A stretch of DNA of 64,000 bases from Escherichia phage UGJNEcP3. Of the stretch, positions 8,303-62,722 are shown in pieces. Position 1 is the first letter of the stretch, and each line of letters opens with the position of its first letter. The position numbers and the translations under genes were made by a program. Location of the stretch: sequence record OV876907. The stretch is one strand, 5' to 3'. Under the pieces are notes generated by a model. The model searched no databases. It had not been told where the DNA came from and saw only the letters and a list, made by a program, of their open reading frames with translations.

Positions 8303-8330
8303 TTGAATCTCCTCGTTAGTTGATAGGTCT

Positions 8331-8360
8331 ATAGTATCACTACCATAGACCGTTGTAAAC
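8331..8360 (-). promoter_or_regulatory. promoter-like element GTTTAC-N18-TACTAT with inverted repeat
   Basis: conserved module ttgataggtctatagtatca; upstream of lipoprotein start. Confidence 0.45.
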
Positions 8361-8362
8361 AC

Positions 8363-8659
8363 TTATTTTACTTTAGAGTAATCCAAAGTTACTAACTGTG
8401 GTTCCATTGCCAGCCGACGCTGACGACGGAGAACCTCACCACCAACATAAGCTCGAAAAGCTTTTTTGCACTGGCGAATCTGACGCTTAGTAGGGCGAAC
8501 AGTAAATTCGTAGAACTCTACAAAATCCATTTCGCCTTTAGTTTCCTGAGAAAGGACAAGTTCCCAACGACTATTAATACGGTCTACATAAAACTTGTGC
8601 TTACCAAAAGACCGGTCCCAAAAGCCACTTTTAACAGGTTTCATAATTTGAATATTCAT
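8363..8659 (-). CDS. hypothetical protein (98 aa)
   Basis: ORF on dominant strand. Confidence 0.45.
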   Translation of the reverse strand: MNIQIMKPVKSGFWDRSFGKHKFYVDRINSRWELVLSQETKGEMDFVEFYEFTVRPTKRQIRQCKKAFRAYVGGEVLRRQRRLAMEPQLVTLDYSKVK

Positions 8660-8800
8660 TTATTCCTCACCTTCATGTTTGTGAGCAAATTCTTCGTATT
8701 CGCTGTCGCAGTCTAAACAGGTAGCGTTGTCCCAAGCATCAAATACTGCCTGGTCTTCACATACTGAACAACCACATACTACACATTCAACTTCTTCCAT
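8660..8800 (-). CDS. small Cys-rich zinc-ribbon-like protein (46 aa)
   Basis: MEEVECVVCGCSVCEDQ...CLDCDSEYEE; fills gap exactly between neighbouring ORFs; below track cut-off. Confidence 0.3.
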   Translation of the reverse strand: MEEVECVVCGCSVCEDQAVFDAWDNATCLDCDSEYEEFAHKHEGEE

Positions 8801-9007
8801 TTAGATTTCCTCAATGCGGGCATCATATTCAAAAACTTTATTGTCATTAACAAAGGCTTTCACCAGTGCATTATTCACTTCTGCATACTGCACTGTAACC
8901 CATTCAATCATTTTTTGGTCACTAACATCCAGCGCAGTTTCTTTGGTAAACATATTACCATTTTCAAACCAACCAATAAACACTACGATCTCTTTTAATT
9001 TCCACAT
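8801..9007 (-). CDS. dmd: Dmd-like antitoxin (inhibitor of RnlA/LsoA-type toxins)
   Basis: ...GWFENGNMFTKE...VQYAEVNNALVKAF... matches T4 Dmd (gene 61.5) as recalled; SD GAGGAAA. Confidence 0.6.
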   Translation of the reverse strand: MWKLKEIVVFIGWFENGNMFTKETALDVSDQKMIEWVTVQYAEVNNALVKAFVNDNKVFEYDARIEEI

Positions 9008-9325
9008 TTAGATTTCCTCACAGAAGGCCCATTCAGCATGATAAACCGTAGCGCCTTTAGTATCATTTAAACAAACCACATCTACCGGAGCAATTACACG
9101 ATAAAGACGGGGTTCTCCTCCCACTGAACGAGCTGCTCGTCCAGCATAAATCTTAGCCAAACCGATATCTTCAGTAAAGAACACACGATTTAGGTTTTTC
9201 TTACGACCGGTTTCAGACAGAACTCCTGTTTCCTCGGGAGGACAAAGCATATTACCGATATTAGCAACACTGCAACTTCCGTGATAATACACTTTATATT
9301 CTGTTTTACAGTCGATGGTTTTCAT
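9008..9325 (-). CDS. hypothetical protein (105 aa from second ATG)
   Basis: leader ATGGAGAACAAAATG: first ATG belongs to the conserved GGAG leader, second is the likely start. Confidence 0.45.
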   Translation of the reverse strand: MKTIDCKTEYKVYYHGSCSVANIGNMLCPPEETGVLSETGRKKNLNRVFFTEDIGLAKIYAGRAARSVGGEPRLYRVIAPVDVVCLNDTKGATVYHAEWAFCEEI

Positions 9326-9349
9326 TTTGTTCTCCAAGTTGATAGGTCT

Positions 9350-9378
9350 ATAGTATCATGCCTATAGGAGATGTAAAC
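9350..9378 (-). promoter_or_regulatory. promoter-like element GTTTAC-N17-TACTAT
   Basis: conserved module; follows the terminator after gene 41. Confidence 0.5.
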
Positions 9379-9385
9379 CCTTAAA

Positions 9386-9410
9386 ACAAAAAAAGGAGCC
9401 GAAGCTCCTT
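9386..9410 (-). terminator. intrinsic terminator after gene 41
   Basis: AAGGAGC-CGAA-GCTCCTT hairpin then U7 on minus strand. Confidence 0.6.
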
Positions 9411-17116: not shown

Positions 17117-17123
17117 AATATCC

Positions 17124-17261: not shown

Positions 17262-17494
17262 TGTTTAACGATAATGATTTGTGCGGTTGATTTACGTTCA
17301 GCGACGATAGCCCAGATTAAAGCCACTACCCAACCAATCATCGTCCATCCTAACAGGAGATTAAGGAAGAAGATTCCGACATTGTTACGAGTGCCTCGCA
17401 GAAGAGCTAGAATCCATGGTAAGAAGTAAGCGATGAACATCATAACCAGAGAACCGAATCCTAAAACACCAGCACTAACGATTAAAGCTTCCAT
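17258..17494 (-). CDS. imm: superinfection immunity protein Imm
   Basis: 78 aa two-TM protein with ...FFLNLLLGWTMIGWVVALIWA... motif; position next to gene 43. Confidence 0.6.
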   Translation of the reverse strand: MEALIVSAGVLGFGSLVMMFIAYFLPWILALLRGTRNNVGIFFLNLLLGWTMIGWVVALIWAIVAERKSTAQIIIVKQ

Positions 17495-17526
17495 TGTAAT
17501 TTCCTCTTAAGTAGTTGTTAGGAAGG

Positions 17527-17556
17527 ATAATACCACGTTCCATGTGGTATGTAAAC
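17527..17556 (-). promoter_or_regulatory. promoter-like element GTTTAC-N18-TATTAT
   Basis: upstream of imm. Confidence 0.45.
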
Positions 17557-30096: not shown

Positions 30097-30422
30097 TTAG
30101 CTGCCTTAACAATTTTCAGGTCAACGAATTTTTTCTTACGTTGATTCTTCATACGACGGATGGTTTTGTCTGTGATTTCACCTGGCTGCCAAGCTTTAGA
30201 TTCGACACCAAAGGCGGCCACATCAAACTCGTCGAGAATATATTGAACCAGGATTTCACGAATACCGTTCTTACCAATTTTTTGGTCTTTAGAGTGCATG
30301 ATTGGTAACAGTTCAGCAACCCATTGGTCAAGAACCTGAGGAGTTACAAAGCCAGTTTTCATCAGTTCATTAACTTTATCGAAAGCGAAAGAGTTCAGTA
30401 CGTTTTTAATAGCTTGTGACAT
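30093..30422 (-). CDS. hypothetical protein (109 aa)
   Basis: ORF. Confidence 0.45.
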   Translation of the reverse strand: MSQAIKNVLNSFAFDKVNELMKTGFVTPQVLDQWVAELLPIMHSKDQKIGKNGIREILVQYILDEFDVAAFGVESKAWQPGEITDKTIRRMKNQRKKKFVDLKIVKAAK

Positions 30423-30491
30423 AATAATTTCCTCAGTTTAAAAATTTATAATCCGTAGGACCATTATACTCTGGTCCCAAGAGTTTGTAAA

Positions 30492-30692
30492 CTATTTTTG
30501 TGCTAATGCACCTTTCCAACCTTCATACATCATTGCGGCTGATATTAATATTGCTCCTGCGCATTTTGAATATTTGTTATTCCAAAACCAGTTTAGAAAA
30601 ACTTCGTCATCAATACCTTGAGCTATCATATTTTCAAAGAACTGACGACGGGCTTCAGCAATTCGTTGTGATAATTTAGATTCAGGATTCAT
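30492..30692 (-). CDS. hypothetical protein (66 aa)
   Basis: ORF. Confidence 0.35.
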   Translation of the reverse strand: MNPESKLSQRIAEARRQFFENMIAQGIDDEVFLNWFWNNKYSKCAGAILISAAMMYEGWKGALAQK

Positions 30693-30824
30693 TTAAATTT
30701 TCCAGTTGCCGTTTTCATCAATAAATTTAATCCAGTCATTTACTGACCACTTAGTCGTATCGCCTTTTGGAGTAACATTTAAAGTGTATAATCCTTGTTT
30801 AAAAAGCATACGTTTGATATTCAT
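30693..30824 (-). CDS. small hypothetical protein (43 aa from internal ATG)
   Basis: ATG 30824 with SD GAGGAAAA; track ORF extension overlaps upstream gene. Confidence 0.3.
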   Translation of the reverse strand: MNIKRMLFKQGLYTLNVTPKGDTTKWSVNDWIKFIDENGNWKI

Positions 30825-30831
30825 ATTTTCC

Positions 30832-31125
30832 TCAGCTGTAACGATAGCATTCGTTTGATTTACGTTTTGCAACTCGATGAGAAGTATTGTAATCGGGTTC
30901 ATCGTCGCTGTAAACATCTTTTTTCAGTTTTCTCACTTCTTTACGAAGTTGGCGGTTCATTTCATTCTTAACTTCAGAATCAACGCCGCTAAAGCGTTTC
31001 CATTTATCTGACCGGAAGATATTTTCATTCAAAGTTTCTTCCGATACGCCATCAGGTGCTTTACGTCTAGCAATGCAATTAAAATCTCTAGATGGCAATT
31101 CTTTACGACGGATAGTTTTACCCAT
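30832..31125 (-). CDS. hypothetical basic protein (97 aa)
   Basis: ORF. Confidence 0.4.
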   Translation of the reverse strand: MGKTIRRKELPSRDFNCIARRKAPDGVSEETLNENIFRSDKWKRFSGVDSEVKNEMNRQLRKEVRKLKKDVYSDDEPDYNTSHRVAKRKSNECYRYS

Positions 31126-31382: not shown

Positions 31383-31614
31383 AATTTAATTTCCTTAGCT
31401 ATCGAACAAAATACACCACGGTCACAAATCATTTTAATATTAAGGTCAATTATGGTATACCACACGTCTAGGCTAGATATTTCAGTTACTAGAACAGCTT
31501 TGCCGTTGATTGAATAATACTGGTTGACTTTAATTTCTTTATCTTGGATAGTCATAATGTTCTCCTCATGTGTTGATAGGATAGACTATAACACGTGAGG
31601 AGAGGAAGTAAACA

Positions 31615-33212: not shown

Positions 33213-33641
33213 TCAGAATGCCTCATCAGAATAGCGAAGTTGAGCTTCAAGCCAATGGATATAATCAGCTGCGGCAGCAATCAGATTTGATTCCTGGTCT
33301 GGTAATGAACCGGAATCTGCTAGTTCATAAAGTGAATTCTCAATCAAACGACCTTTATGACGTCCTGGGTGGTGACGTTCTTCAAATTCTTCAACTTCTT
33401 TAAGTTGATTCATTGTGGCATTGCAATAGAAGCACCAGAAGCAAGATTCGCGACTATTTACATGGAGATACACGCCATTCTTAATTTTAACAGAAGTAAT
33501 ACCATCCGCATAATCAAGGTCACGAGCGGCAGTGGTAATAACCTTGAATACAACACCCTTCTTCAATTCAGGAAACTGCATCAGCAACTCTTCATCGTCG
33601 GCGATGATTTCAAATACTTTATTCACTAAATTCATACCCAA
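33213..33641 (-). CDS. hypothetical protein (142 aa)
   Basis: ORF. Confidence 0.45.
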   Translation of the reverse strand: MGMNLVNKVFEIIADDEELLMQFPELKKGVVFKVITTAARDLDYADGITSVKIKNGVYLHVNSRESCFWCFYCNATMNQLKEVEEFEERHHPGRHKGRLIENSLYELADSGSLPDQESNLIAAAADYIHWLEAQLRYSDEAF

Positions 33642-33751
33642 ACTCCATATCGATTAAATCATTGTTTGAAGGTTCATTATAATCTATTTCGGAACCGTTG
33701 TAAACCGGTTCCTCTGGCTCGGTAGTTTCCCACCGAGCGACATACCACGGC

Positions 33752-35097: not shown

Positions 35098-36104
35098 TTC
35101 AACAGCTCCAGAGCTTGTTCAAGGCGGTCTAAACGATTAGTAGACTCTTCCCAAAGTTTCTTGGCAGCAGTATATTGTCCAGTCAGTTTTTTGTTAATAG
35201 CAAGGGCGTCTTTATACGCTTTTTCCAGAGCAACGACTTCTGGTAACTTGGATTTAGTAATTGGTGTAGGGACCATGATAGGGCTGTTCAAGTCGTTAAT
35301 CAAGTCTTCTAATGTAGCAGGCTCTTTATCAGTATTCACAATTTCCTCACATTTTTCTTGGTAAATTTCAGCATCGGTTTTTGGAACATGACATTTGATT
35401 TCACGGACTGTTACTAAAACTTCATATCCTTTCCAGCCTAAGTGGTGTTTAACTTCTTGGGTCTCATATTTCTCTACGGTATCCATCAGAGCTAAAGCCT
35501 GTTCGATAGTATTCAAGGTATCGTAAGCAATATCTTGATACTTTACAACTTCTGGCTCATCTTTAGGTTTCCGGTTTGGTGACCAGATAACGGAAATAAG
35601 CACCTTTCCTTTATAGGCGTTTGTTTTAATCATGCAATTTGCCATAGGATGAATGGTGCGGCTATCACCAGCAACTACTGTTTTAGTGGCGGCTTTGAGG
35701 ATTAATGCAGAGTTAGCCTTGAATTCAGCGGCCCAACGTTGTGGAAATAAACTACTAGGGTCCATACCTTTAATTTTGACATAACCTTTTATGGTATCGC
35801 CAAACCATTTGTAGCTAACAACATGGCTAGAACCAGGATATTTCTCTCTACCAAACTCAGAAAGGATGTCCTTATTGACCAGCCGCGAAAGCAGTCGAGA
35901 ACCTTTAAATGTATCTACGATATCATTAATAAACAAGCGACCCGCGATCTTTTCGATTTCAGCTTTGAAACAGCGCGATAATGCATCATCAATTTGGTCG
36001 ACCCATTTATTGATATTAGAAACTATTACCACATATGGGGTTAATGGAGGGGTATTGGCAGTGATATACGTAGTAAAGGCATTGATGTATTCGGTACGAG
36101 TCAT
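35094..36104 (-). CDS. hypothetical protein (336 aa)
   Basis: large ORF; no motif recognised. Confidence 0.5.
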   Translation of the reverse strand: MTRTEYINAFTTYITANTPPLTPYVVIVSNINKWVDQIDDALSRCFKAEIEKIAGRLFINDIVDTFKGSRLLSRLVNKDILSEFGREKYPGSSHVVSYKWFGDTIKGYVKIKGMDPSSLFPQRWAAEFKANSALILKAATKTVVAGDSRTIHPMANCMIKTNAYKGKVLISVIWSPNRKPKDEPEVVKYQDIAYDTLNTIEQALALMDTVEKYETQEVKHHLGWKGYEVLVTVREIKCHVPKTDAEIYQEKCEEIVNTDKEPATLEDLINDLNSPIMVPTPITKSKLPEVVALEKAYKDALAINKKLTGQYTAAKKLWEESTNRLDRLEQALELLK

Positions 36105-36161
36105 GATATTCTCCTCAAGTTGATAGAAAGATTATACTCCATCCGTCCTTGGATGTAAACA

Positions 36162-38156: not shown

Positions 38157-38681
38157 TTATGCGAGAACCGTCTTTAAACGCTCTTCAAATTTCTGAAGCA
38201 GAACTTGGCGTTCAGCTCGTTGTGATTTGTACTGCTCGATACGACCTGAAGTGAGGGCGTACTGTTCGTTTACTGATTCCCGCATGAATTCAGGAATCTC
38301 TTTACAAGCTTTGATTTCGTCAAACTTATCAATAACAGCTTGTTGTTCAGCAATCAGATTATCGAAATAAGCGATATCAGATTTAACGTTTGCCAGGTCA
38401 GATTCGGTAGGCATTAAACGTTTGTTACGTTCAGCTTGATAAGCTTGATTGGTTTCACGGCTCCAGTGAAGAGTACGTTTTTTGTTAGTGTTTTTATAGA
38501 GCTCTACAATACCAACTGAATCGATGACTGCAATCCAGTTCCAACGGCTTTTGTAAATCTCTCCTCCAGATACGGTAATCTCATTACCACAAGCAACGTC
38601 GTTAAAGAACTTGCTTTGTTTTTCAGATTTGAAATTACCGTTGTTGAAATTAATCAGTGAAAAAATATCTTTAGCGTTCAT
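38157..38681 (-). CDS. hypothetical protein (174 aa)
   Basis: ORF. Confidence 0.45.
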   Translation of the reverse strand: MNAKDIFSLINFNNGNFKSEKQSKFFNDVACGNEITVSGGEIYKSRWNWIAVIDSVGIVELYKNTNKKRTLHWSRETNQAYQAERNKRLMPTESDLANVKSDIAYFDNLIAEQQAVIDKFDEIKACKEIPEFMRESVNEQYALTSGRIEQYKSQRAERQVLLQKFEERLKTVLA

Positions 38682-38707
38682 GATAACCTCCAGTAGTTGA
38701 TAGGTCT

Positions 38708-38736
38708 ATAGTATCATTTCTACTGGAGATGTAAAC
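38708..38736 (-). promoter_or_regulatory. promoter-like element GTTTAC-N17-TACTAT flanked by 9-bp inverted repeat
   Basis: ctccagtag (38688-38696) / ctactggag (38721-38729) bracket the -10. Confidence 0.5.
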
Positions 38737-39090: not shown

Positions 39091-40146
39091 TTATTTCAGA
39101 AGTGTAACTTCAGCGATTTCGCTCCAGTCATTTTTATCGGTGGCAATGAAATCCGCCAGATAAAGAGCTGTACGTAATGATACGTTACGAAGACGAGATA
39201 CATTAGCCTTCATCCAGGACAGTGCTTGATAAGTCTCGGCATCAGTCAGACCACGGTTTTGCATCATATCAGTGGACAGGATAACGTCTTCAACACGAAC
39301 CATAATCTCTTCGTTAGAGTGAACTCCGAGGTCTAAGTAAACTGAACGAGATACTAAAGCCTGGAGGTGTGGAGCAAGTTTAGTTCCACGCTCTAATTCA
39401 CGGTCAATATCAACGTTGGTGATGAACACGATGGTGCCTTCGTATTCGAATTCTTTATCGATATTTTTATCATCAAGGTAAGAACTTGAAGTGCTCCAGC
39501 ACACCTTACGTTTTTCACCGGTATCCAATGCTGCTTTTAACAGGTTCAGGATATCCATATCAGAGAATACATCAACATCATCAATAAGAAGAACACTATT
39601 AGGGCCGCGGTTATTCCAAAGCTGCTCGTAAAGACCGATTCCACTAATCTTTCCGTTGATTGATTTATATTCGATAGTTTCATTTTCGTGGGCATTTTGT
39701 AATGCTTTATCCAAAGAGTACGTTTTACCAATACCTGCTGCACCAGAGATGATAAGGGAACGAATTTTACCATCGATGATTCCATTAGTCATCATATTCA
39801 TTACTTTAAAACGTTTGTTGATGCGGTGTTTCATTTCATCCTGGGATTCAGTTACGACTACAGGAGATTCAGTACCTTCCATTTCGATGTCACATTTGAA
39901 CACCCATACACCACGTTCAACACCATCAATCTGTACAAATACCTTGCCATCACCGAGATGAGCTTCGGATTCATGAATTTTATTAGGGAACCAGGTTTTA
40001 CCTGAACTCATGAACGTACCAGAGATTTCATTACCGCGATAGATGCCTTTGTTGATTTTGATAGTTAACATTTTATTCTCCATTTCACTCAGTAGATTTG
40101 ATAGGTCCATAATAACATGCTCTACGAGGTTGTAAACACTTTTTTG
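39091..40146 (-). CDS. AAA-type P-loop ATPase
   Basis: Walker A ISGAAGIGKTYSL, Walker B VLLIDDVD; start at second ATG of ATGGAGAATAAAATG leader. Confidence 0.55.
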   Translation of the reverse strand, partial: QKSVYNLVEHVIMDLSNLLSEMENKMLTIKINKGIYRGNEISGTFMSSGKTWFPNKIHESEAHLGDGKVFVQIDGVERGVWVFKCDIEMEGTESPVVVTESQDEMKHRINKRFKVMNMMTNGIIDGKIRSLIISGAAGIGKTYSLDKALQNAHENETIEYKSINGKISGIGLYEQLWNNRGPNSVLLIDDVDVFSDMDILNLLKAALDTGEKRKVCWSTSSSYLDDKNIDKEFEYEGTIVFITNVDIDRELERGTKLAPHLQALVSRSVYLDLGVHSNEEIMVRVEDVILSTDMMQNRGLTDAETYQALSWMKANVSRLRNVSLRTALYLADFIATDKNDWSEIAEVTLLK

Positions 40147-42733: not shown

Positions 42734-42916
42734 TTATGCTTTCAACTCATTCAGATACTCAACCAAGGCTGCTTTAGAGTTAGCCAAATCTCGTTTACAC
42801 TGCTCTATTCCGGAATACGAATAGCCTTCACAATGTTCTACTGCACTATCATAAGAATCACGTTCAATATCAGTAGCAAGTTTAATAATTTTCTCAATCT
42901 GTTCGGTAGTTAACAT
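42734..42916 (-). CDS. hypothetical protein (60 aa)
   Basis: ORF; promoter module at 42945-42973 upstream. Confidence 0.35.
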   Translation of the reverse strand: MLTTEQIEKIIKLATDIERDSYDSAVEHCEGYSYSGIEQCKRDLANSKAALVEYLNELKA

Positions 42917-43013
42917 AACTTTCTCCTCATTAGTTGATAGGTGTATAGTATCACGTTCCTAGAGGATGTAAACACTAAAACGAAAAAAGGTCCCACCGAA
43001 GTGAGACCTTTGG

Positions 43014-46159: not shown

Positions 46160-46618
46160 TTAAAGATAGATTACTTTCGTGCTGGTTTTACCTTCTAAAC
46201 GTTTAGAGTTAACAAATGCCATACGACATTTAAGGGAATATCCTTTATCAGGATGTTTACGATCTACGGTCATACCTAGCCATAAGGTTTTATCGGTAAT
46301 TTCGAGACGCAGTGGGCGATACACCTTACCTGGGACAATTTCAGATTCTACGTCAGGAAGAGGCTCCTGGATTAAAAATTCATGGATTTCTTTAACATGG
46401 TTATGGAGCTTCTTGAACAAAGAGAAAACATATTTTTCGTCAATTTCACGTTGGATAGCACGGTCCAACAAGTGATTAGAGTACTTAATAAAGAAAGCTG
46501 GGACACCGCTCTTAATGGCGGCTTTTTTGATGGACGCGTTAAGTTCACGAAATTCGGTTTCGAACTGACGACGTAATTTGTTGCGGCGGATGAATACTTC
46601 TGAATTAATTTCTGACAT
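46160..46618 (-). CDS. regB: endoribonuclease RegB
   Basis: 152 aa; EVFIRRNKLRR...HLLDRAIQREIDE...RLEITD..LWLG... matches T4 RegB as recalled. Confidence 0.8.
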   Translation of the reverse strand: MSEINSEVFIRRNKLRRQFETEFRELNASIKKAAIKSGVPAFFIKYSNHLLDRAIQREIDEKYVFSLFKKLHNHVKEIHEFLIQEPLPDVESEIVPGKVYRPLRLEITDKTLWLGMTVDRKHPDKGYSLKCRMAFVNSKRLEGKTSTKVIYL

Positions 46619-46646
46619 TTTATAATCTCCTGTAGTTTATAGGTCT

Positions 46647-46675
46647 ATAGTATCATGTCTACAGGAGATGTAAAC
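46647..46675 (-). promoter_or_regulatory. promoter-like element GTTTAC-N17-TACTAT flanked by 9-bp inverted repeat
   Basis: ctcctgtag (46627-46635) / ctacaggag (46659-46667); upstream of regB. Confidence 0.5.
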
Positions 46676-49311: not shown

Positions 49312-49908
49312 TTAATTACCACGGGCTGCATTAGCAACGGCGTAAGCGTACTGAATATTAGCGTCTTTAAACGTACCTTTAGAGGTATCTATTTCTGCCT
49401 TAAAGCCGCCTTTAGCCATAACATCAGCAAATTCTTTACGGAAAGTCATTGCATCAAGACCTTTCCATGTTGATTTGTGCTTGGCAAATTCAAGACCAGC
49501 GAAGTTAACTGCTTTAGCCAATTTATTATCAATAGTCCATTTACCTGCTTTAGGTACAAATACCGGACCTTTCTGTTTAGAGAACAGTTTTAAATTCCAG
49601 CGACGAAGGTCACCGTCAGCTTTAACAAAAGCTGCGTCCAAGTTACTAGCAACAACATCTTGGATATGGGCAAATTTAAGTCCATCAGCTTCAATATTTA
49701 GGTCGTTACGCCAGCGAAGTCCTTCCCAGGCGAAAGCTTTAAAGTCGGAAGCTTTTGTAGCCAAGTACCGTTCAATAGGAGCTGTTTTAGCGTCAAAACC
49801 GTTTCCTGGGTTGTCAACGCCGTTTCCTTTGTAAGTCCACTCATCTTTATTAATGCCTTGGACCTTTCCTACAGAAGCTTCGGCGATAAATTCTTTATAC
49901 GTTTTCAT
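49312..49908 (-). CDS. internal protein (IPIII-like), CTS MKTYKEFIAEA
   Basis: CTS; 198 aa basic protein. Confidence 0.6.
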   Translation of the reverse strand: MKTYKEFIAEASVGKVQGINKDEWTYKGNGVDNPGNGFDAKTAPIERYLATKASDFKAFAWEGLRWRNDLNIEADGLKFAHIQDVVASNLDAAFVKADGDLRRWNLKLFSKQKGPVFVPKAGKWTIDNKLAKAVNFAGLEFAKHKSTWKGLDAMTFRKEFADVMAKGGFKAEIDTSKGTFKDANIQYAYAVANAARGN

Positions 49909-49990
49909 ACGGGTTCCTTAAAGGTAAATATTTTAATTGGTCTGTTCAAGTAACTGTAGATATACTATCACAATTCTAGGAGATGTAAAC

Positions 49991-52866: not shown

Positions 52867-53079
52867 TTACTTTTTGTTGAAAAAGTACATTTTACCTTTA
52901 GGAGATAAGGATACACGAAGTGCGTTACCAATACCAACTGAACATTTAACCAGGTCAGCAGATTTCAATTCACCAAATGCTTGACGAAGGTCACCGTCAC
53001 GAGTGTTAACCATCAGACATTTAGCACCAGCTGCACGAACTTCGTTTAACATGTTGATTGCTTGGTTAGAAAGTTTCAT
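52867..53079 (-). CDS. hypothetical protein (70 aa from second ATG)
   Basis: ATGGAGAATAAAATG leader; promoter module 53117-53145 upstream. Confidence 0.4.
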   Translation of the reverse strand: MKLSNQAINMLNEVRAAGAKCLMVNTRDGDLRQAFGELKSADLVKCSVGIGNALRVSLSPKGKMYFFNKK

Positions 53080-53157
53080 TTTATTCTCCATTTCACTCTG
53101 TTGTTTTGATAGGTCTATAGTATCACACCTATAGACCTTGTATACTGTTTTATGCAA

Positions 53158-55225: not shown

Positions 55226-55235
55226 TTTTATTTCC

Positions 55236-55448: not shown

Positions 55449-55457
55449 TTTATTACC

Positions 55458-55655: not shown

Positions 55656-55664
55656 AATAATTCC

Positions 55665-55946: not shown

Positions 55947-55955
55947 AGAATTTCC

Positions 55956-56246
55956 TTAGCACATTGCTGAAGAGGAGACCCAAGCACCAACTGTAACGAC
56001 ACCGTTTTCAACTTCACCGCCATTGTTTTCAATTTCATCTTTAAACCACTGGGAGCATTCATAACCGACAGGATAATATGTACGGCCTGAACCATAATCA
56101 CCGGTACCGAATTGAATACCGTACTTATCGGCAATAGCTTCGCATTCATGTTCGATGGTATCTACTTTATTCAGAAGAGCATAGATAGCCTTTTCTGCAG
56201 ACAGCGCGCTGTTGTATTCAGGGATTTCAATTTCAATTTTATTCAT
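55956..56246 (-). CDS. small protein, C-terminal tail family member 1 (...WVSSSAMC)
   Basis: tandem paralog array. Confidence 0.45.
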   Translation of the reverse strand: MNKIEIEIPEYNSALSAEKAIYALLNKVDTIEHECEAIADKYGIQFGTGDYGSGRTYYPVGYECSQWFKDEIENNGGEVENGVVTVGAWVSSSAMC

Positions 56247-56596
56247 GATTTACATTCCTTAATAAAGGTTTCAAGGTCATTACGTTTAGTTTGTTTTACA
56301 TACTCATTATAATTAGCCATAGCTAAAGCATATCTCTTTTTACGTGGCTTGTTTATTTTATTAGTTTGGGCAATATCAAAGACCCATGGGATAAAAAATC
56401 CTATTAAAGCCGGAACCCAAATCCACGCGAGGCTCATATCTTCAAACGGATGGCGAGGCATACCATTAATAATCCCACCGACAAGAAATCCAATTATCCC
56501 TGCAGTCATACTAGTAGCAATGCCGAGGAATAATGAAATAGAGATATCGTAATCTGCTAATGCGTAACCAGGGTCGGTTTTACTAGGCTTATGCAT
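56243..56596 (-). CDS. membrane protein (117 aa from internal ATG)
   Basis: hydrophobic core; ATG 56596 with SD AGAGG. Confidence 0.4.
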   Translation of the reverse strand: MHKPSKTDPGYALADYDISISLFLGIATSMTAGIIGFLVGGIINGMPRHPFEDMSLAWIWVPALIGFFIPWVFDIAQTNKINKPRKKRYALAMANYNEYVKQTKRNDLETFIKECKS

Positions 56597-57125
56597 TTTG
56601 AACCTCTTTAGCGTATTCGCGACATTCAGCAATAAAACGATTAAGCTTACGTTGTTGTTTACGACTTTCTAATGTGTACTCATTAGACAAAATAATAAGC
56701 TCATCTTTATCGTAATTTTTAATATCAGAGTAAGATGGGCGACGGTCAACCATTCCAAATACATCACCATTTTCTAAAGCTACATAGCATACTAAATGGT
56801 AATCATCGTCTGCCATATTAAGAAGCACACAATCAGCGCTCTCGTTTAAAGAATATACTGAATAACGTAGTCCAGCGAATTCCACTCGTTGAATAGCCAG
56901 ATTTACGTCAATAATTTCCAAAGCATCTTCAAAAGAAAGGTCTTCAGCTAAAGCAAAAATAAAAGGTAATTTGGTAGTATCGCCACGGCTAGATGTTCTG
57001 CTTAAGAAATCGTTTGAATAGCCTAGGTCTTGGCGAATTCTATAAAGAACTGAATTGGTTTCATGGGAAAGACCACTATTTTTAAACCAATCAATATTTG
57101 ATATCAGGTCGTCATATAAACTCAT
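56589..57125 (-). CDS. hypothetical protein (178 aa)
   Basis: ORF. Confidence 0.45.
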   Translation of the reverse strand: MSLYDDLISNIDWFKNSGLSHETNSVLYRIRQDLGYSNDFLSRTSSRGDTTKLPFIFALAEDLSFEDALEIIDVNLAIQRVEFAGLRYSVYSLNESADCVLLNMADDDYHLVCYVALENGDVFGMVDRRPSYSDIKNYDKDELIILSNEYTLESRKQQRKLNRFIAECREYAKEVQNA

Positions 57126-57173
57126 AATATTCTCCTCTCCTCCAAATAGGGAGACCGAAGTCTCCCGGTAACA

Positions 57174-57767
57174 TTACTTAAGTGAATTAATGTAGTCTTC
57201 GATATCAGCAGAAGTCGTATCCATTCCAACTTGCGGGCCTTTAAACGTTTCTACGCGCATCAGGGTGTCTTCGATATCAATCTTGGTCAGTGCAGCAATT
57301 TCAACAACATCGTCGGCAGTAGCAATACCAAGGGCAGCCATATTACGAGTTTCACGAATGTACTCAAGCTTAACCGCTAGTTCCTGGCGAGAGTCATCAA
57401 GTTCCTTGACCTTAAGCTTAATTTCATTACGCATTTCAACATAATCATCGGCTTTCTTACGAAGTTGAGTAGCCGTACGACGATAAAGGAGGCCGAGTTT
57501 AGCATGTACCTGGACATCGGCACCTTCTTTAATCAGTTTACGAATTTCGCGTTCTTTGGAACTAGCCAGTTGGTCCTTTTCGTTAGCGAGTTCACGAATA
57601 CGTTTTTCTTCATTCACAGACTTAACATGGGCAGTCTGGAGCTCAGTGATTTTATCAATCAAGGTAGAAGCAGCTTTAGTATACTGGTCTTCAATTGACA
57701 GGTTCTGAGCCATTGCGGTACCCAGTTTAGAACGAATGAATTCAACGAGTTTCTTTAAAGTGTTCAT
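57174..57767 (-). CDS. coiled-coil protein (197 aa), possibly PspA/IM30-like
   Basis: heptad-rich, charge-alternating sequence; family assignment speculative. Confidence 0.4.
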
Positions 57768-57845
57768 AGTATTTCCTTCAGTTGGTTAACGTTTTGTAAT
57801 CCATGAGGACATTATACCCTGTCCTCTGAGGGTTGTAAACATTTT

Positions 57846-58244
57846 TTATTTCATTTTTGCGAGGCAAATTTCATTGGCTTCCCATTGAGCTTGCTTAATA
57901 ATAGCTTTGGATACAGGAGCCCTTTGGCCATAAGTTTTTGACGTTGAGAGAACAATACATTTGTTTGCTTCATTATGCCAGCCCCATGATTTTTCGCCAT
58001 GGGTGCCTTTAACTACAGCTGACACCTCAACAGAGCAACCACCATCAGAAATCTTGGTTTCGACAATCCATTCATTTCTCTCAACAGCTTCAATTTCTAA
58101 TCTAGTTTTTTCTTCATACATCGCGGCCCAATCAGTTTTTGCCAAGTTGAAAGTAAGAGCTTTCTCTAATTCTTTGGCATATTTTTGTTGTTCAGGTGTT
58201 AATGAATTATACAACTCTTGCATTTCTTTATCTTCGATATTCAT
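57846..58244 (-). CDS. hypothetical protein (132 aa)
   Basis: ORF. Confidence 0.45.
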   Translation of the reverse strand: MNIEDKEMQELYNSLTPEQQKYAKELEKALTFNLAKTDWAAMYEEKTRLEIEAVERNEWIVETKISDGGCSVEVSAVVKGTHGEKSWGWHNEANKCIVLSTSKTYGQRAPVSKAIIKQAQWEANEICLAKMK

Positions 58245-58302
58245 TATGTTCTCCTCAAATTATGGGCTCATAATATCTTAATCATGAGCCCATGTAAACG
58301 TT

Positions 58303-58581
58303 TTATTTCATATTATTGAAATAATTTTCTGCATCAAAATCATTACCATGGTAAACTTTGGTAGACGATTTGGCGTAACCTTCAGCTGAGAACATATTAA
58401 TCACAACTTTAATTGTATACCACTGTCCATCTTCATTACCCATTACTGCATAGGTTTCATACACCGGGTGTTCAGGACCGATAACTTTAATATCGTTAAC
58501 TGTAGCACCAAATTCTTCCGGAACACATTTCATAAAGAAATTAAACACTTCACCATAATTATCCATTTTACTCTCCTTCAC
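58303..58581 (-). CDS. hypothetical protein (92 aa)
   Basis: ORF; promoter module 58602-58630 upstream. Confidence 0.45.
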   Translation of the reverse strand: MKESKMDNYGEVFNFFMKCVPEEFGATVNDIKVIGPEHPVYETYAVMGNEDGQWYTIKVVINMFSAEGYAKSSTKVYHGNDFDAENYFNNMK

Positions 58582-58653
58582 ACTGTTGTTTTGATAGGTC
58601 TATAGTATCATGTTCTACGAAAGAGTAAACATCTTTTTTAAACTTTTTAGAAA

Positions 58654-58682
58654 CAAAAAAGGCCCAACCTTTCGGAAGGGCC
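58654..58682 (-). terminator. intrinsic terminator
   Basis: GGCCC...GGGCC hairpin followed by U7 on minus strand. Confidence 0.6.
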
Positions 58683-58687
58683 TAGAA

Positions 58688-59242
58688 TCAGTTCTTGTAG
58701 AACCGGAACGGGTTTACATGGAAGGCTAACATGGCCTTAGGGATTTTACGAGACAAAAGGCTCTTAAGCTTCCAACCACAGTACACGCGAAGGTAAAAGG
58801 TAATCCCACCAACCTTAAGATATGGAACTGAAGCAAATACACCCCAGGCGTCGTCATTCCACATCCATAACCACCCGTGATGAGCTTTATCAGGAGAACC
58901 GGATTCAACGTCGGGATTACCACGATAATGGAATTCTGAGCTACAATCACGACCGAGTTTATGGTAAGCAAAGTTATAAGCTTTATTTCGCCATAGCCAA
59001 GCTACTCTCTGGAGATAAACACCACCTGGCATTTTCCTGATTTTAGCCCAACGTTTAATGTGACCTTTGTCACCGTCAATTGGATTATCGTATGTCATCA
59101 TCCAATCAAAGCCATAAGGCAATTTACCGGTCTTTTTATTGTGGAAAGGAACTACAAAAGGCGCAAGGATAACAGCCAGAACCATAGAGATAAAATCCAG
59201 TGGAACCAACAGAACCCAACTCAAATATTTTAAAAGTTTCAT
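58688..59242 (-). CDS. membrane-anchored protein (184 aa)
   Basis: N-terminal TM segment; ATG 59242 preferred over TTG at 59263. Confidence 0.45.
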   Translation of the reverse strand: MKLLKYLSWVLLVPLDFISMVLAVILAPFVVPFHNKKTGKLPYGFDWMMTYDNPIDGDKGHIKRWAKIRKMPGGVYLQRVAWLWRNKAYNFAYHKLGRDCSSEFHYRGNPDVESGSPDKAHHGWLWMWNDDAWGVFASVPYLKVGGITFYLRVYCGWKLKSLLSRKIPKAMLAFHVNPFRFYKN

Positions 59243-59286
59243 ATATTTCTCTAATTTAACCAAAAAAGCACCAGATGGGGCTTTCG

Positions 59287-59751
59287 TTATTTGATTTGTT
59301 TAGCGGACCAGATACGGTCTTTGATGATTTTCTGAATATCTTCAACATACTCTAAGTCGTGAGCATGCGGATTATCTTTGAAGCTATGTGCTCGTGCCAG
59401 TTTCTGGCCTTCTGTTTTGATTACTAAAAGCTCTTTAAGAATTGCTTCATACTTAGAAATAATTCCTTTGGCGATATTTTTTTCTTGAGCGGCTTTAGGG
59501 TCCGCTTTTGTAGCAGGTGCTTTACCTGTAGCTTTCTGGAACAATTCACCTGATGCAGCTAGGCTTTTAAAAACTCGGCTAACAGTATTAGCATTAGTAA
59601 AACCTTCGGCTTTAAAATCTCTAATAAAACGGAAACGTTCTTCATCAGAGGCGTCTTTGTAAGAATATTTACCTGCTTGAATTGCTGCAATCGCAGCGGC
59701 TTTTACATCTGAACTAGATTGTTCAGTCAAAAATTCATTGTAAGTTTTCAT
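59287..59751 (-). CDS. internal-protein-like cargo, CTS MKTYNEFLTE
   Basis: CTS; 154 aa. Confidence 0.55.
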   Translation of the reverse strand: MKTYNEFLTEQSSSDVKAAAIAAIQAGKYSYKDASDEERFRFIRDFKAEGFTNANTVSRVFKSLAASGELFQKATGKAPATKADPKAAQEKNIAKGIISKYEAILKELLVIKTEGQKLARAHSFKDNPHAHDLEYVEDIQKIIKDRIWSAKQIK

Positions 59752-59791
59752 TATTATTTCCTAAGTTAATTAACTTATCTATTTATTATGC

Positions 59792-59820
59792 CAAAAAGCC
59801 CCAACCTTTCGGAAGGGGCT
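59792..59820 (-). terminator. intrinsic terminator downstream of tRNA/small-RNA cluster
   Basis: AGCCCC...GGGGCU hairpin followed by U-run on minus strand. Confidence 0.6.
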
Positions 59821-59861
59821 ATGCCTTGCGGCAACCTTGTCGGGGTTCCACCTGCTAGGCA

Positions 59862-60201
59862 AGTGTTTGTACGAAACGCCGGGATTCGAACCCGGTTATT
59901 AAGTAGTTGACGCTACTCAATATTTTTAAAAGGCCATATCTCGACCATATCCGAACGTTCCGTCAAAAACGCTACTCGGCTTACGGCAAAGATATTTCCT
60001 CGAATCGATAATTCGGTGCGCCGTTTCTGCTGTGATGTAAGGGGGCGTTAACAGATCGTAAAGATTTGTTAATGCCAGTCCTTACTCAGGGAACATCAGT
60101 CCGACGACTTACCGGTAGCGACCCGGTTTCTTGTTTGTTGCGCCGGTGAATGCTGGTAATCAGTCTTCATACGACGGCTTGACTATATAATAGTCTTCAT
60201 T
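59862..60201 (-). ncRNA. candidate stable small RNA(s) with tRNA-like 3' T-arm
   Basis: 340 nt with no ORF between tRNA-Arg and terminator; CCGGGTTCGAATCCCGG T-arm at 59880-59896 but no acceptor/anticodon fold; local hairpins; T4 has stable RNAs next to tRNA-Arg. Confidence 0.35.
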
Positions 60202-60276
60202 TGGTATCCCGCCCTGGGATCGAACCAGGACCGCAAACTTAGAAGGATCGTATGCTATCCATTACACCAGCGGGAC
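60202..60276 (-). tRNA. tRNA-Arg (anticodon TCT)
   Basis: 75 nt incl. encoded CCA; acceptor GTCCCGC/GCGGGAT, T-arm CCTGG-TTCGATC-CCAGG, anticodon loop CTTCTAA; folded by hand. Confidence 0.75.
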
Positions 60277-60281
60277 ATAGT

Positions 60282-60359
60282 TGGTGACCCGGACCAGATT
60301 TGAACTGGTAACCTTTCCCTTATGAGGGGACTGCTGCTAACCAATTGAGCTACAGGGCC
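60282..60359 (-). tRNA. tRNA with anticodon CAT (Met, or Ile if C34 is modified)
   Basis: 78 nt incl. encoded CCA; T-arm ACCAG-TTCAAAT-CTGGT; anticodon loop CTCATAA; acceptor stem with one mismatch; folded by hand. Confidence 0.65.
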
Positions 60360-60364
60360 TTAAT

Positions 60365-60631
60365 TTAAATTACAAATCCAGCAGGAGCATTATCATCTTT
60401 AGCCATGTGCTGAATTGTATGATAAGTCATTTCTTCAGGAGCAACCAGATAAGCCGCAACGTTAACTAGTGGAATTATTTTTGGTTTAGCGAACGTGCTA
60501 TCAGAAATTGCCATAAAGGGCTCGCCATCGGTCTCAACTTCACCAAATTGGCATTCATATGAAATAGAACAACGTTTGGTAGTTGTTGTCTTGGTTTTAG
60601 GGTCATAAAAAGCTAATTTCAATACTAACAT
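60365..60631 (-). CDS. hypothetical protein (88 aa)
   Basis: ATG 60631 with SD GAGGTG. Confidence 0.4.
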   Translation of the reverse strand: MLVLKLAFYDPKTKTTTTKRCSISYECQFGEVETDGEPFMAISDSTFAKPKIIPLVNVAAYLVAPEEMTYHTIQHMAKDDNAPAGFVI

Positions 60632-60760
60632 AAACACCTCAAATAAAATTAAGTAAAGTAAGTTTTATTAATAGACCTTGTCTATTATGAAAGGTTCTTT
60701 GAGGGAAGAACCTTTGGTAATAGAGGGTATTAATGATAGAGTAATAATATCACATAATTC

Positions 60761-61246
60761 TTAAAGCATATTAAGTGCTTTAACACTAGGTATTTGGATT
60801 TCTTCTTCAACGATGTACAGCTTAACATAAGAAATTACACGGATGAAATCGCCATCATATTCACAAGCCATACCAAGGAGCTCAGTAAGAGCTTCATTCA
60901 AGTAGTATGCTTCTTCATCGTCATTCAACAAGGCTTCTAAGTCTTGAATACCTAGGACCTTATCTAAAAATTCCGGAGTCAACTGGCCCGATTTTACACC
61001 AGATTCAATGTGAGCAATAACCAAATGCTTAACTACGCCCCAGTCTTCGTTACCACATTTATCCGGGCTGTTACAATGCGAACCATGGAAAAGTTCTAAG
61101 ATATATTTGTACTGTTGGATTTCCTGTTCTTCTACACCAAATACAGTCTGGGTTTTATAGTTATCACCATCATTTTCCCAGGTTTCGATTTCAAGAACAT
61201 AACCTTTAGGAATAACTTGTCCAAATTTAATATTCATTGCGGCCAC
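60761..61246 (-). CDS. hypothetical acidic protein (161 aa)
   Basis: ORF. Confidence 0.45.
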   Translation of the reverse strand: MAAMNIKFGQVIPKGYVLEIETWENDGDNYKTQTVFGVEEQEIQQYKYILELFHGSHCNSPDKCGNEDWGVVKHLVIAHIESGVKSGQLTPEFLDKVLGIQDLEALLNDDEEAYYLNEALTELLGMACEYDGDFIRVISYVKLYIVEEEIQIPSVKALNML

Positions 61247-61524
61247 ATATTAATGTAATCAAGTTTAATAGAAGCAATCTTCAAAGGATTTTTAAAGATG
61301 TCGTATTCGATCAATCCATTTTCAGTTGCGGTATAAAAAGTAAAGTTAACAGAATTATAACGATGGCTGTTAACTTTGAGTTTAACATCGCTTGAACTAC
61401 GGCCAATATTAACCTGTTGAACATCAAGCACAGCATCTTTGCCGTAATTTCGAATCAACAACTCGGCTGCAACCTGGTCTGAATTATAGCCGTTCTCCGG
61501 ATTAGTAACCTTAACGTATAGCAT
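61234..61524 (-). CDS. hypothetical protein (96 aa)
   Basis: ORF. Confidence 0.4.
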   Translation of the reverse strand: MLYVKVTNPENGYNSDQVAAELLIRNYGKDAVLDVQQVNIGRSSSDVKLKVNSHRYNSVNFTFYTATENGLIEYDIFKNPLKIASIKLDYINMWPQ

Positions 61525-61905
61525 TTAACCCTCGTCTACAATAGTGTGGGTATTGGCATTAACAATTTGCCACCAGTCAAAACGATTGGACCCATATTGA
61601 GGTGTATTCTCGTTTTCTTTAATGATATCACGTAGTTCATCTTCAGTAGCAGCTTTTGCGATTAAGTCGGCATAGCCGCCGCGAGGATAATAGTTATCAC
61701 CTGCGAAAAGTAAAAAGTTTGGTTTGATATTATTGAACTCTTCAAGAGTAATAACCGTTCCGTTTGGTTGAACAATATCTACATAACTATATCCTAATTT
61801 CTGAGCTTCGGAAACCGCTTCAAGCAGGGTATCATGGGCCCATCCAATTTGACAATCGGGTTTTTCGGATGGATTAGCTTGGTAGTCCGCATACACTTTA
61901 TACAT
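61525..61905 (-). CDS. hypothetical protein (126 aa from internal ATG)
   Basis: ATG 61905 with SD AAGGTGA. Confidence 0.4.
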   Translation of the reverse strand: MYKVYADYQANPSEKPDCQIGWAHDTLLEAVSEAQKLGYSYVDIVQPNGTVITLEEFNNIKPNFLLFAGDNYYPRGGYADLIAKAATEDELRDIIKENENTPQYGSNRFDWWQIVNANTHTIVDEG

Positions 61906-61906
61906 T

Positions 61907-62092
61907 TTACTCACCTTTAGAGATTTTATCCATAACAAAAGAGATTGAACCAATTAAAAATGCCACTACTAAAGAGATTATATTCTCGGAAGTTGAAAGC
62001 ATATCGAGCATGAATCCTGCAAACATACTAAAGCCAAAAGCAGTAACGGCGGCCAGTGCAGTAACATTTCTAATTAATTCACAACGTTTCAT
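61907..62092 (-). CDS. small membrane protein (61 aa)
   Basis: second ATG of conserved leader; hydrophobic. Confidence 0.4.
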   Translation of the reverse strand: MKRCELIRNVTALAAVTAFGFSMFAGFMLDMLSTSENIISLVVAFLIGSISFVMDKISKGE

Positions 62093-62160
62093 TTTATTCT
62101 CCAATCACTCATTTGTTTTGATAGGGCTATAGTATCATCACTAGAGCCCGTTGTAAACAA

Positions 62161-62433
62161 TTATTTTAGATAAATTGCATACTTTTTATAACCAGCCGTT
62201 TCGTGACGCAGTCCTTTTTCATTAGCAAAACGTTCAATATTGTTAATTTGATTCTGGTCGAGTTCTGAAGTATCAAAAACAAAAAAGTTTCGCTTATTGC
62301 CTAAAGTTACGTGATTAGTCAAATCAATGTTATAGAGATGATTTATATTATCAATCATAGTCTTAACAGATTTGTTAATTTTTACTTCTTCATTAAGAAT
62401 AGATTCAGCGATAAATTCTTGGTATGATTTCAT
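62161..62433 (-). CDS. internal-protein-like cargo, CTS MKSYQEFIAE
   Basis: CTS; in the ipI position. Confidence 0.55.
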   Translation of the reverse strand: MKSYQEFIAESILNEEVKINKSVKTMIDNINHLYNIDLTNHVTLGNKRNFFVFDTSELDQNQINNIERFANEKGLRHETAGYKKYAIYLK

Positions 62434-62434
62434 T

Positions 62435-62656
62435 TTATTCTACGCCCGCGGCTTTCAAAAGTTTTTTAAGATTGGCAGTGCCTTGAGCAGAAAATGTGAC
62501 CTTGCCGCCTTTTTCGCTGATGCTCCCAGTCAATTTAGCAAGTTTATCACTAGAGACTTTTTTAAAATCAGCCAATGTACCGTCAAAGGTTTTTGTAACA
62601 ACCGGCAGTTGGTCATGTTTTTTAGCTTCTGTAATAAATTCTTGATAAGCTTTCAT
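62435..62656 (-). CDS. internal-protein-like cargo, CTS MKAYQEFITEA
   Basis: CTS; 73 aa. Confidence 0.55.
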   Translation of the reverse strand: MKAYQEFITEAKKHDQLPVVTKTFDGTLADFKKVSSDKLAKLTGSISEKGGKVTFSAQGTANLKKLLKAAGVE

Positions 62657-62693
62657 TTTGATTTCCGTTTGGTTAGTTTGTTTTGATAGGTCT

Positions 62694-62722
62694 ATAGTAT
62701 CACGCCTATAGACCTTGTAAAC
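62694..62722 (-). promoter_or_regulatory. promoter-like element GTTTAC-N17-TACTAT with perfect 9-bp inverted repeat
   Basis: ggtctatag (62689-62697) / ctatagacc (62706-62714). Confidence 0.5.

Follow-up and report, generated by a model that had tools for sequence, protein, structure and literature searches.

Early promoters of a JS98-type T4-like phage carry spacers complementary to downstream sequence, in a stem-loop geometry already described and in a second that is predicted to mask ribosome-binding sites

Early promoters of the T4-like phages RB49 and phi1 are known in a composite form, the PeSL, in which an early promoter is joined to a stem-loop that mostly lies between the two hexamers or overlaps the -10, followed by a Shine-Dalgarno (SD) sequence and an ATG (Arbiol et al. 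2010, PMC2839356). About 50 copies occur, mostly in plastic regions, where recombination between PeSLs shuffles cassettes, and the stem-loop of one RB49 PeSL lowered expression of a downstream lacZ about as much as rrnB T1 (PMC2839356). Here we analyze a recurring promoter module in a 64,000-nucleotide stretch of Escherichia phage UGJNEcP3 (sequence record OV876907; hereafter the window). A reading of the letters alone (the original prediction) had described this module as a single architecture with inverted repeats around the -10 that differ between copies but stay complementary. We find that complementarity of the promoter spacer to downstream sequence is almost certainly under selection, that it takes two geometries, one of which is that of the PeSL, and that it probably acts in RNA that reads through the promoter from upstream.

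The PeSL concept has been extended to the T4/PST and KVP40/nt-1 pairs, with TTTACW-N17-TAYWAT given as the T4/PST promoter (Comeau et al. 2014, PMC4122927). Neither PeSL paper (PMC2839356, PMC4122927) mentions compensatory change, translation or SD masking, and JS98-type phages are touched on only in passing. Reviews of T4 transcription give the early-promoter consensus of UP element, GTTTAC, TGn and TAnnnT and do not describe complementarity between spacer and downstream sequence or embedded stems (PMC2988021, PMC1524935); a 2022 eLife paper on T4 evolution contains nothing on promoter-mediated recombination. A second kind of composite is found at the T4 genes e, soc, 49 and I-TevI, where SD-masking hairpins contain an embedded late promoter; secondary structure is also known to protect GGAG from RegB (PMC3014915). 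Our literature search found no relevant transcriptome or 3'-end data on T4-like early promoters and no promoter analyses of JS98.

Bases 60000-64000 of the window are 100% identical to Escherichia phage UGJNEcP4 (OV877765.1), a Dhakavirus of the JS98-type T4-like phages, and the window corresponds to positions 12639-76638 of that record. It spans a T4-like early region, from srd and two annotated RNA polymerase ADP-ribosylase (mod-type) genes through gene 1, with essentially all genes on the minus strand. The pattern GTTTAC-N16-19-TAYWAT has 19 matches in the window, every one on the minus strand, where 0.24 would be expected and the most extreme shuffle gave 2. Permitting one degenerate hexamer adds three copies (53145, 49990 and 31613; sites are named by their highest window coordinate, that is, the 5' end on the minus strand), for a total of 22, all in gene orientation. 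The original prediction had counted at least 15 such sites between 8316 and 62722; these are present, and the set extends below 8316, to 598, 1337 and 1959.

Further features accompany the hexamers. TG at -15/-14 (TGn) is present in 16/22 promoters, and 16/22 also have an A at the inferred +1, which falls 7 nt beyond the -10. Sequence just ahead of the -35 (25 nt) is UP-like, with an A+T fraction of 0.71 (A alone, 0.40) compared with 0.61 (0.31) for the whole strand. A block reading TAYWAT-nnnCyTATCAA, which covers the discriminator and start region, occurs in 12 copies versus 0.5 expected. The leader GGAGAAnAAAATG, by contrast, is much rarer than the original prediction implied: it has nine matches with at most one mismatch, and only about seven of these sit downstream of the promoters. 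T4 early promoters share these hexamers, the spacer length, TGn, the A-rich upstream sequence and the start region, and orthologues of T4 early genes follow the sites; there is no essential difference between the two sets. Downstream genes include srd, the two ADP-ribosylase genes, spackle, imm, regB and internal-protein genes; most of those following the 22 copies in these 64 kb are annotated as hypothetical or internal protein. The sites are, with near certainty, T4-type early promoters, sigma-70-dependent to judge by consensus and context. Their layout would be a UP-like A/T tract, the -35 GTTTAC, TGn, the -10 TAYWAT and a putative start at the A of agacctATCAA.

Complementarity between spacers and downstream sequence was assessed by pairing each spacer with its own downstream region or with those of the other copies, a control that preserves base composition and conserved motifs. 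The best perfect stems summed to 119 for own partners, against 91.5 +/- 4.9 (maximum 115) in 100,000 re-pairings of the window's promoters. The duplex energy between the spacer and the segment from the end of the -10 to +2 was -132.7 kcal/mol for own partners and -80.3 +/- 10 kcal/mol for re-paired ones (p<2e-5). For pairing between spacer and leader, the same cross-partner test gave p=0.016 in the window and 0.004 in T4; this control is conservative because SD sequences are common to many genes. Against shuffled spacers, the value for the spacer and the SD window was -145.4 compared with -86.3 +/- 7.9, and anti-SD tetramers occur in 9/21 spacers but in 8.3% of background 17-mers. A duplex energy of -10 kcal/mol or better is reached by 13 of the 22 promoters.

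The same signal is found outside the window. Among 60 pooled, non-redundant promoters from the window, T4 and orthologous loci, own pairing amounts to -722 kcal/mol versus -455 +/- 19 kcal/mol (z=-13.9). T4's own promoters give p=2e-5 for stems and p=1.8e-4 for the geometry that we call class I below, and own-pairing in RB49 promoters gives p=0.01. A feature restricted to Dhakavirus is thus rejected, since T4 shows the same effect and RB49 has class I. That the complementarity might be no greater than chance, the outcome named beforehand as fatal to the original prediction, is ruled out by the own-versus-cross re-pairing, and chance is likewise rejected by the motif count and the shuffled-spacer tests. 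We regard it as nearly certain that spacer complementarity is under selection.

All four inverted repeats cited in the original prediction lie at the positions given for them, although the one at 62124-62149 contains an internal mismatch (GGGCT-c-TAG / CTA-t-AGCCC). Two of them, 38688-38729 and 46627-46667, do not surround the -10 but are long-range pairings of spacer and SD with 23-nt loops. The single architecture had therefore merged two geometries, one enclosing the -10 and one masking the SD. The sites, identified as early promoters by consensus and context, are as follows (energies in kcal/mol).

62654..62722 (-): early promoter, internal-protein gene downstream; class I hairpin AGGTCTATAG/CTATAGACCT, 10 bp, enclosing the -10; -15.7
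62090..62158 (-): early promoter; imperfect class I hairpin GGGCT-c-TAG / CTA-t-AGCCC, -12.6; orthologous to the T4 73572 promoter (ATAGGGT/ACCCTAT)
58564..58630 (-): early promoter, no embedded hairpin; preceded, about 10-40 nt before the -35, by a canonical intrinsic terminator
58242..58299 (-): early promoter; class I hairpin ATGGGCTCAT/ATGAGCCCAT, 10 bp, -20.0; promoter and gene cassette missing in relative L038
57765..57840 (-): early promoter of an e.6-like gene; class I GAGGACA/TGTCCTC, -14.9; orthologues have GGGAACAT/ATGTTCCC or GTGTAGGAG/CTCCTACAC
53077..53145 (-): early promoter with degenerate -35 GTATAC; class I hairpin, arms identical to those of 62722, -15.6
49906..49990 (-): early-promoter-like site with -10 TAGTAT, internal-protein gene downstream; weak pairing, -6.5
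46616..46675 (-): regB early promoter; class II stem ATCTCCTGTAG/CTACAGGAGAT, 11 bp, between spacer and SD
42914..42973 (-): early promoter; weak class II pairing CCTC/GAGG; canonical terminator upstream
40069..40137 (-): early promoter; weak pairing; canonical terminator upstream; start codon of the gene probably at 40071, not at the annotated 40110
38679..38736 (-): early promoter of an nrdC.8-like gene; class II stem CTCCAGTAG/CTACTGGAG
36102..36160 (-): early promoter; moderate bulged pairing of spacer with leader and SD, -10.6
33633..33705 (-): early promoter, pin-like gene downstream; weak class I stem GGTTC/GAACC
31553..31613 (-): early promoter with -10 TATAGT; class II stem TCTCCTCA/TGAGGAGA, predicted to mask the SD; -18.3
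30822..30915 (-): promoter-like site within the 3' end of the upstream open reading frame (ORF); stem CGATGA/TCATCG
30420..30492 (-): early promoter; class I GGGACCA/TGGTCC(T) enclosing the -10, -14.3; near-identical to the T4 7215 promoter
17492..17556 (-): imm early promoter, immediately following gene 43; SD paired with the discriminator CCTTCC; small hairpin inside the spacer
9323..9378 (-): early promoter; CTATAG/CTATAG and TCTCC/GGAGA pairing; canonical terminator upstream
8300..8360 (-): spackle early promoter; class I GGTCTATGGTA/TACTATAGACC with one G.U, -16.8; orthologues have GGGGTAAT/ATTATCCC, GGGATAATA/TATTATCCC or GGACTA/TAGTCC
1904..1959 (-): early promoter of an annotated RNA polymerase ADP-ribosylase (mod-type) gene; spacer ACCTCC and discriminator GACCTC complementary to the SD GGAGGT(C)
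1280..1337 (-): early promoter of the second annotated RNA polymerase ADP-ribosylase (mod-type) gene; no significant pairing
526..598 (-): early promoter, srd downstream; no significant pairing

In class I (62722, 62158, 58299, 57840, 53145, 30492 and 8360, with weak members 33705 and 9378), the 5' arm lies in the spacer and the 3' arm is formed by the last bases of the -10 and the discriminator, so that the -10 falls in the loop. Loops measure 8-12 nt, folding energies range from -12.6 to -20 kcal/mol, and predicted accessibility of the SD is unchanged. In class II (46675, upstream of regB, 38736 and 31613, with weaker members 1959, 42973, 9378 and 36160), the 3' arm is the SD of the downstream gene and loops span 23-33 nt. 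At 17556 the arm that pairs with the SD comes from the discriminator rather than the spacer. Whichever the class, the 5' arm always precedes the inferred start site. Transcripts begun at the promoter itself would consequently lack this arm, and the helix could form only on RNA that reads through from upstream.

On read-through RNA, as compared with RNA beginning at the inferred +1, the predicted probability that the SD is unpaired falls from 0.56 to 0.21 at 46675, from 0.47 to 0.01 at 38736 and from 0.59 to 0.16 at 31613. When spacers were exchanged computationally for those of the other 21 promoters, the native spacer proved the best masker at each of these three sites. At class I sites 62158, 58299, 57840 and 30492, native spacers were instead among the least masking, which suggests that class I stems may keep the spacer from interfering with the downstream translation initiation region (TIR). 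Across the chimeras of all 22 promoters, SD accessibility on read-through RNA was bimodal.

One annotation is affected by the promoter assignment. The annotated start of UGJNECP4_00100, at 40110, is an ATG made of the last two bases of the -10 hexamer and a G (window 40069-40114, minus strand). An in-frame ATG at 40071 comes after the inferred start site of promoter 40137 and has a strong TIR, GGAGAATAAAATG; the annotated protein is thus probably 13 residues too long.

The arms are replaced between lineages, with pairing retained. We compared orthologous loci encoding the downstream genes, taken from IMG/VR (labels L0xx). At regB, promoters from five lineages and T4 always keep a stem of differing sequence: TCTCCTGTAG/CTACAGGAGA, GTGTAG/CTACAC and TTCTCCTCTTTAT/ATAAAGAGGAGAA in some lineages, nested arms in others (GGGCTAT/ATAGCCC inside TCTCC/GGAGA, and GGGCCAT/ATGGCCC inside TTCCTT/AAGGAG), and TCCTCTT/AAGAGGA in T4. 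Promoters of the nrdC.8-like, e.6-like and spackle genes likewise have their arms swapped for different but complementary ones in other T4-like lineages, and between the orthologous promoters 62158 and T4 73572 a C-G pair is replaced by T-A. In an alignment of regB promoters on one fixed structure, 68% of cells are paired, compared with at most 52% in slid registers, and eight pairs have changed on both sides. The pairing register slides between lineages, so that a single consensus structure under-counts pairing; one fixed structure for all copies is impossible for this reason. We therefore restricted the formal pair count to the regB orthologues, where numbers are moderate, and otherwise relied on the own-versus-cross permutation. 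The central claim of the original prediction is upheld: paralogous copies pair specifically with their own partner, orthologues carry different arms that are still complementary, and this copy- and lineage-specific complementarity supports selection for structure rather than for a fixed protein-binding sequence.

This variation bears on two further explanations. Inverted repeats around a -10 occupy typical operator positions and CTATAG is common to several copies, as might be expected of a palindromic operator bound by a dimeric protein that regulates early promoters. However, CTATAG recurs simply as the junction of the TACTAT -10, of which it takes the last bases, with the conserved discriminator, and arm sequence, length and register differ among copies and orthologues, with complementarity alone being kept. 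This variability excludes a sequence-specific operator, and we give the operator explanation almost no credence. Templated correction of quasi-palindromes, in which intrastrand template switching renders imperfect repeats perfect, is a known mutational mechanism in T4, and several stems here are perfect over 9-11 bp. If the repeats were a functionless by-product of this process, though, it would be hard to see why they occupy an identical place in the promoter across many versions of unrelated sequence, why the 3' arms are confined to two locations, the discriminator or the SD, why interruptions are biased toward G.U, or why strong stems track the absence of intergenic space (see below). We consider a mutational by-product very improbable.

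The original prediction left open whether a hairpin or a cruciform is selected, and the interruptions within stems favor a hairpin in sense-strand RNA. Single interruptions flanked by Watson-Crick pairs comprise six G.U, no A.C and one other in own stems, compared with 43, 20 and 88, respectively, in cross-pairings, and further G.U pairs are found in the orthologues L034, L056, L057 and L059. Because G.T and A.C should be equivalent in a cruciform, this imbalance suggests sense-strand RNA; the 23-33 nt loops of class II and its 3' arms, which always fall on the SD, also point to the RNA level. We consider it probable, by a fair distance from certainty, that the structure acts as RNA on read-through transcripts.

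The alternative at the DNA level is that a cruciform or single-strand hairpin modulates RNA polymerase binding or promoter shut-off, or that the repeat is a site of recombination or cleavage (for example, by endonuclease VII) that drives cassette shuffling. Class I repeats do overlap the -10, the mechanism of T4 early-promoter shut-off is unexplained (PMC2988021), breakpoints of cassette insertions and deletions fall at these promoters, and Arbiol et al. (PMC2839356) speculated that the stem-loop is a target of recombination proteins. However, loops of both classes are too large for easy cruciform extrusion, a G.U rather than A.C bias is unexpected in a double-strand cruciform, coverage of the SD by class II 3' arms is relevant only to RNA, and the insertion and deletion junctions lie in shared UP/-35 or leader sequence, outside the variable arms. 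A role in DNA appears quite unlikely on this evidence.

Pairing in these promoters is related to the space available upstream. Among the 21 promoters that have an upstream ORF, its stop codon is at most 12 nt from the -35, and often 0-5 nt, in 15. Strong stems are present in 12 of these 15 and in none of the six with a gap of more than 20 nt (p=0.0015; p=0.0012 with T4 included; gap and energy thresholds were set after the data had been seen). Canonical intrinsic terminators stand directly upstream of four promoters (minus strand, at approximately 58640-58670, 42980-43010, 40140-40170 and 9385-9405), three of them with UUCG-type tetraloops. The embedded stems of these four promoters (58630, 42973, 40137 and 9378) are weak, and in relative L037 the e.6 promoter has no stem and a canonical terminator just upstream instead. 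It is suggestive that an upstream terminator and an embedded hairpin tend to be alternatives, although the association is marginal (Fisher p=0.053, Mann-Whitney p=0.13).

The embedded hairpins are not themselves canonical terminators. They share with intrinsic terminators a G+C-containing RNA hairpin at the end of an upstream gene, and a published PeSL stem-loop did reduce downstream reporter expression. They differ in that class I stems are not followed by a T-tract (the sequence reads, for example, TATCAA or ATGGAT), and a terminator scan of 52000-64000 called none of them; identity as canonical intrinsic terminators is rejected on this ground. A PeSL upstream of gene 39 in RB49 (L067, 3140-3201) has a 13-bp stem enclosing the -10 and then a T-rich tract, TTTTCTTTT. 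Unlike the elements of the window, it could be a true terminator that overlaps a promoter. At L025:470-600, no promoter precedes the orthologue of the gene at 58244; an GGGGCgaaaGCCCC hairpin stands directly before the SD instead.

Short distances between stop codon and promoter also raise the question of translational coupling, a phenomenon of this sort being established elsewhere, for example in RNA phages. A ribosome terminating at the upstream stop could melt the base of the hairpin and transiently open the SD, so that downstream translation on read-through RNA would be coupled rather than silenced. The proximity of stop codon and -35 in 15/21 promoters is as this explanation would have it, and in class II the 5' arm begins some 6-12 nt past the stop, close enough for a terminating ribosome to reach. 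However, such a ribosome would touch no more than the outermost 1-4 base pairs of the 9-11 bp stems, class I stems do not involve the SD, and coupling of this kind has no experimental support in T4-like phages. We regard coupling as unlikely.

Class I corresponds closely to the PeSL. Each combines a sigma-70-type early promoter with an A/T-rich tract, a stem-loop, an SD and a start codon, lies between genes, recurs tens of times and is located mostly upstream of small genes of unknown function. RB49 promoters, in a scan made here, have arms in the spacer and discriminator exactly as in class I. Class I sites show the stem-loop between or overlapping the hexamers, followed by SD and start codon, whereas about 8 of the 22 promoters have no meaningful stem. 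Other features set the window apart from published PeSLs. The -35 is of the T4 type, GTTTAC, rather than TTGACA, and the arms are highly variable rather than Gn...Cn. Stem-loops of T4/PST were placed just upstream of the promoter (PMC4122927), while many are inside it both here and in our re-analysis of T4. Class II has no counterpart among the ten RB49 promoters sampled.

Cassette differences between related phages also have their breakpoints at these promoters, as described for PeSLs. L038 lacks exactly the promoter and gene cassette of 58299 (window 58293-57857), with the junction in shared UP/-35 sequence (compared over 56784-58929), and L037 lacks two cassettes (window 58685-57787). L005 has a 210-nt insertion that ends at 46681, 6 nt before the regB -35 (compared over 46681-47002), and, at 8370, L051 has a replacement of the gene that precedes the spackle promoter (compared over 8370-8760). 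Junctions of such differences among relatives lie in shared UP/-35 or leader sequence. Two cassettes recur at non-orthologous places in T4 (L026/L027): the 65413 promoter, upstream of denV, is a near-identical copy of the window's regB promoter (46675), arms TCTCCTGTAG/CTACAGGAGA included, and the 7215 promoter, upstream of motB, is nearly identical to 30492. Class I geometry, cassette shuffling and identical cassettes at non-orthologous places together identify the module as a PeSL-type element. Class I is the published PeSL geometry, and in this respect the finding is real but mostly already known.

Class II more closely resembles the hairpins of T4 e, soc, 49 and I-TevI. In the T4 cases, RNA that arrives from upstream has its ribosome-binding site drawn into a helix, as is predicted for class II, and in both the promoter lies within or just upstream of the 5' arm. 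The T4 promoter's own transcript lacks this arm and is translatable; the geometry of class II fits the same logic, and its own transcript would lack the arm if begun at the inferred +1. The T4 examples have a late promoter (gp55, TATAAATA) and block early translation of late proteins. In class II, the embedded promoter is a sigma-70 early promoter, the genes are early, the arrangement occurs at several loci and in several genera, and masking is predicted only. Because its promoters are early rather than late, class II is like this family in logic but is not a member of the described set. We found no description of SD masking at early promoters in the literature; Liebig & Ruger 1989 and Repoila et al. 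1994 were outside our coverage and may hold earlier observations.

Covariance models from Rfam, applied to the window at gathering score, recovered two tRNAs and no known RNA family for the hairpins. The tRNA genes, annotated Arg and Met, are at 60205-60359 (minus strand), in the internal-protein and tRNA region. A homing endonuclease gene (23906-24589) is flanked on one side by the gene 46 orthologue (SbcC-like subunit) and on the other by a small hypothetical ORF adjoining the RNA polymerase binding protein gene. The sole annotated plus-strand ORF of this otherwise minus-strand region is at 5390-5590.

Taken together, we think it reasonably probable that these are early promoters of which about half are composite, PeSL-type elements, with a spacer selected to pair downstream and a helix that forms on read-through RNA in one of two versions. 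Several observations weigh against this interpretation. Roughly 8 of the 22 promoters are weakly paired or unpaired (598, 1337, 17556, 33705, 49990, 58630, 40137 and 42973), so the structure is not obligatory. Class II taken alone is only moderately significant in the cross-partner test, as the p values above indicate, and the G.U count is small (n=7). The start site is placed only from the position of the -10 and the conserved A. Class I hairpins, having no T-tract, fall outside the definition of intrinsic terminators, and the relation of hairpins to stop codons and to upstream terminators carries the post hoc thresholds and marginal significance already noted. With upstream stop codons no more than 6-12 nt away from the 5' arm, terminating ribosomes might open the stem, leading to coupling rather than silencing.

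In about half of the promoters, the 17-18 nt spacer appears to have been selected for complementarity to a downstream segment, and we propose that, if the hairpins form in vivo, the two classes serve different ends. Class I may act as an attenuator, a 3'-end structure or an insulator for the upstream transcript, and it would stand in for a terminator where the promoter lies right against the upstream stop codon, with no space left for one; we consider this role as a terminator replacement plausible. In class II, the ribosome-binding site would be masked on read-through RNA and open on promoter-proximal RNA, which would make both translation and RegB's access to GGAG depend on the early promoter of the gene itself. 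It is plausible, given the structure predictions, that class II silences, or couples, read-through translation and shields GGAG from RegB. More tentatively, we speculate that early-promoter spacers of the Tevenvirinae constitute a genome-wide discriminator of transcript origin, with the ribosome-binding site and GGAG open only on own-promoter RNA for a substantial subset of early genes and class I acting as a complementary insulator; this broader proposal is possible but doubtful.

Were it correct, protein output would track the promoter's brief window of activity. Such timing might be part of the reason, as yet unexplained, why early protein synthesis ends so abruptly, and it would spare long read-through RNAs for the middle genes further downstream; the class I insulator would shield the downstream TIR from the influence of upstream sequence at sites with no room for a terminator. 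The additions made here are modest: numbers for covariation, evidence for the RNA level, a link to intergenic space and an SD-masking subclass. They give quantitative covariation support to the PeSL concept, which had been published descriptively, and extend it to JS98-type phages, which are represented in phage therapy collections. If confirmed, the SD-masking variant would add a layer to the distinction between immediate-early and delayed-early expression and to RegB targeting, and it would be relevant to the re-use of these promoters as parts and to engineering of T4-like genomes by cassette exchange. Across T4-like genera, T4 included, the seemingly free spacer of very strong phage promoters appears to carry a second, RNA-level constraint.

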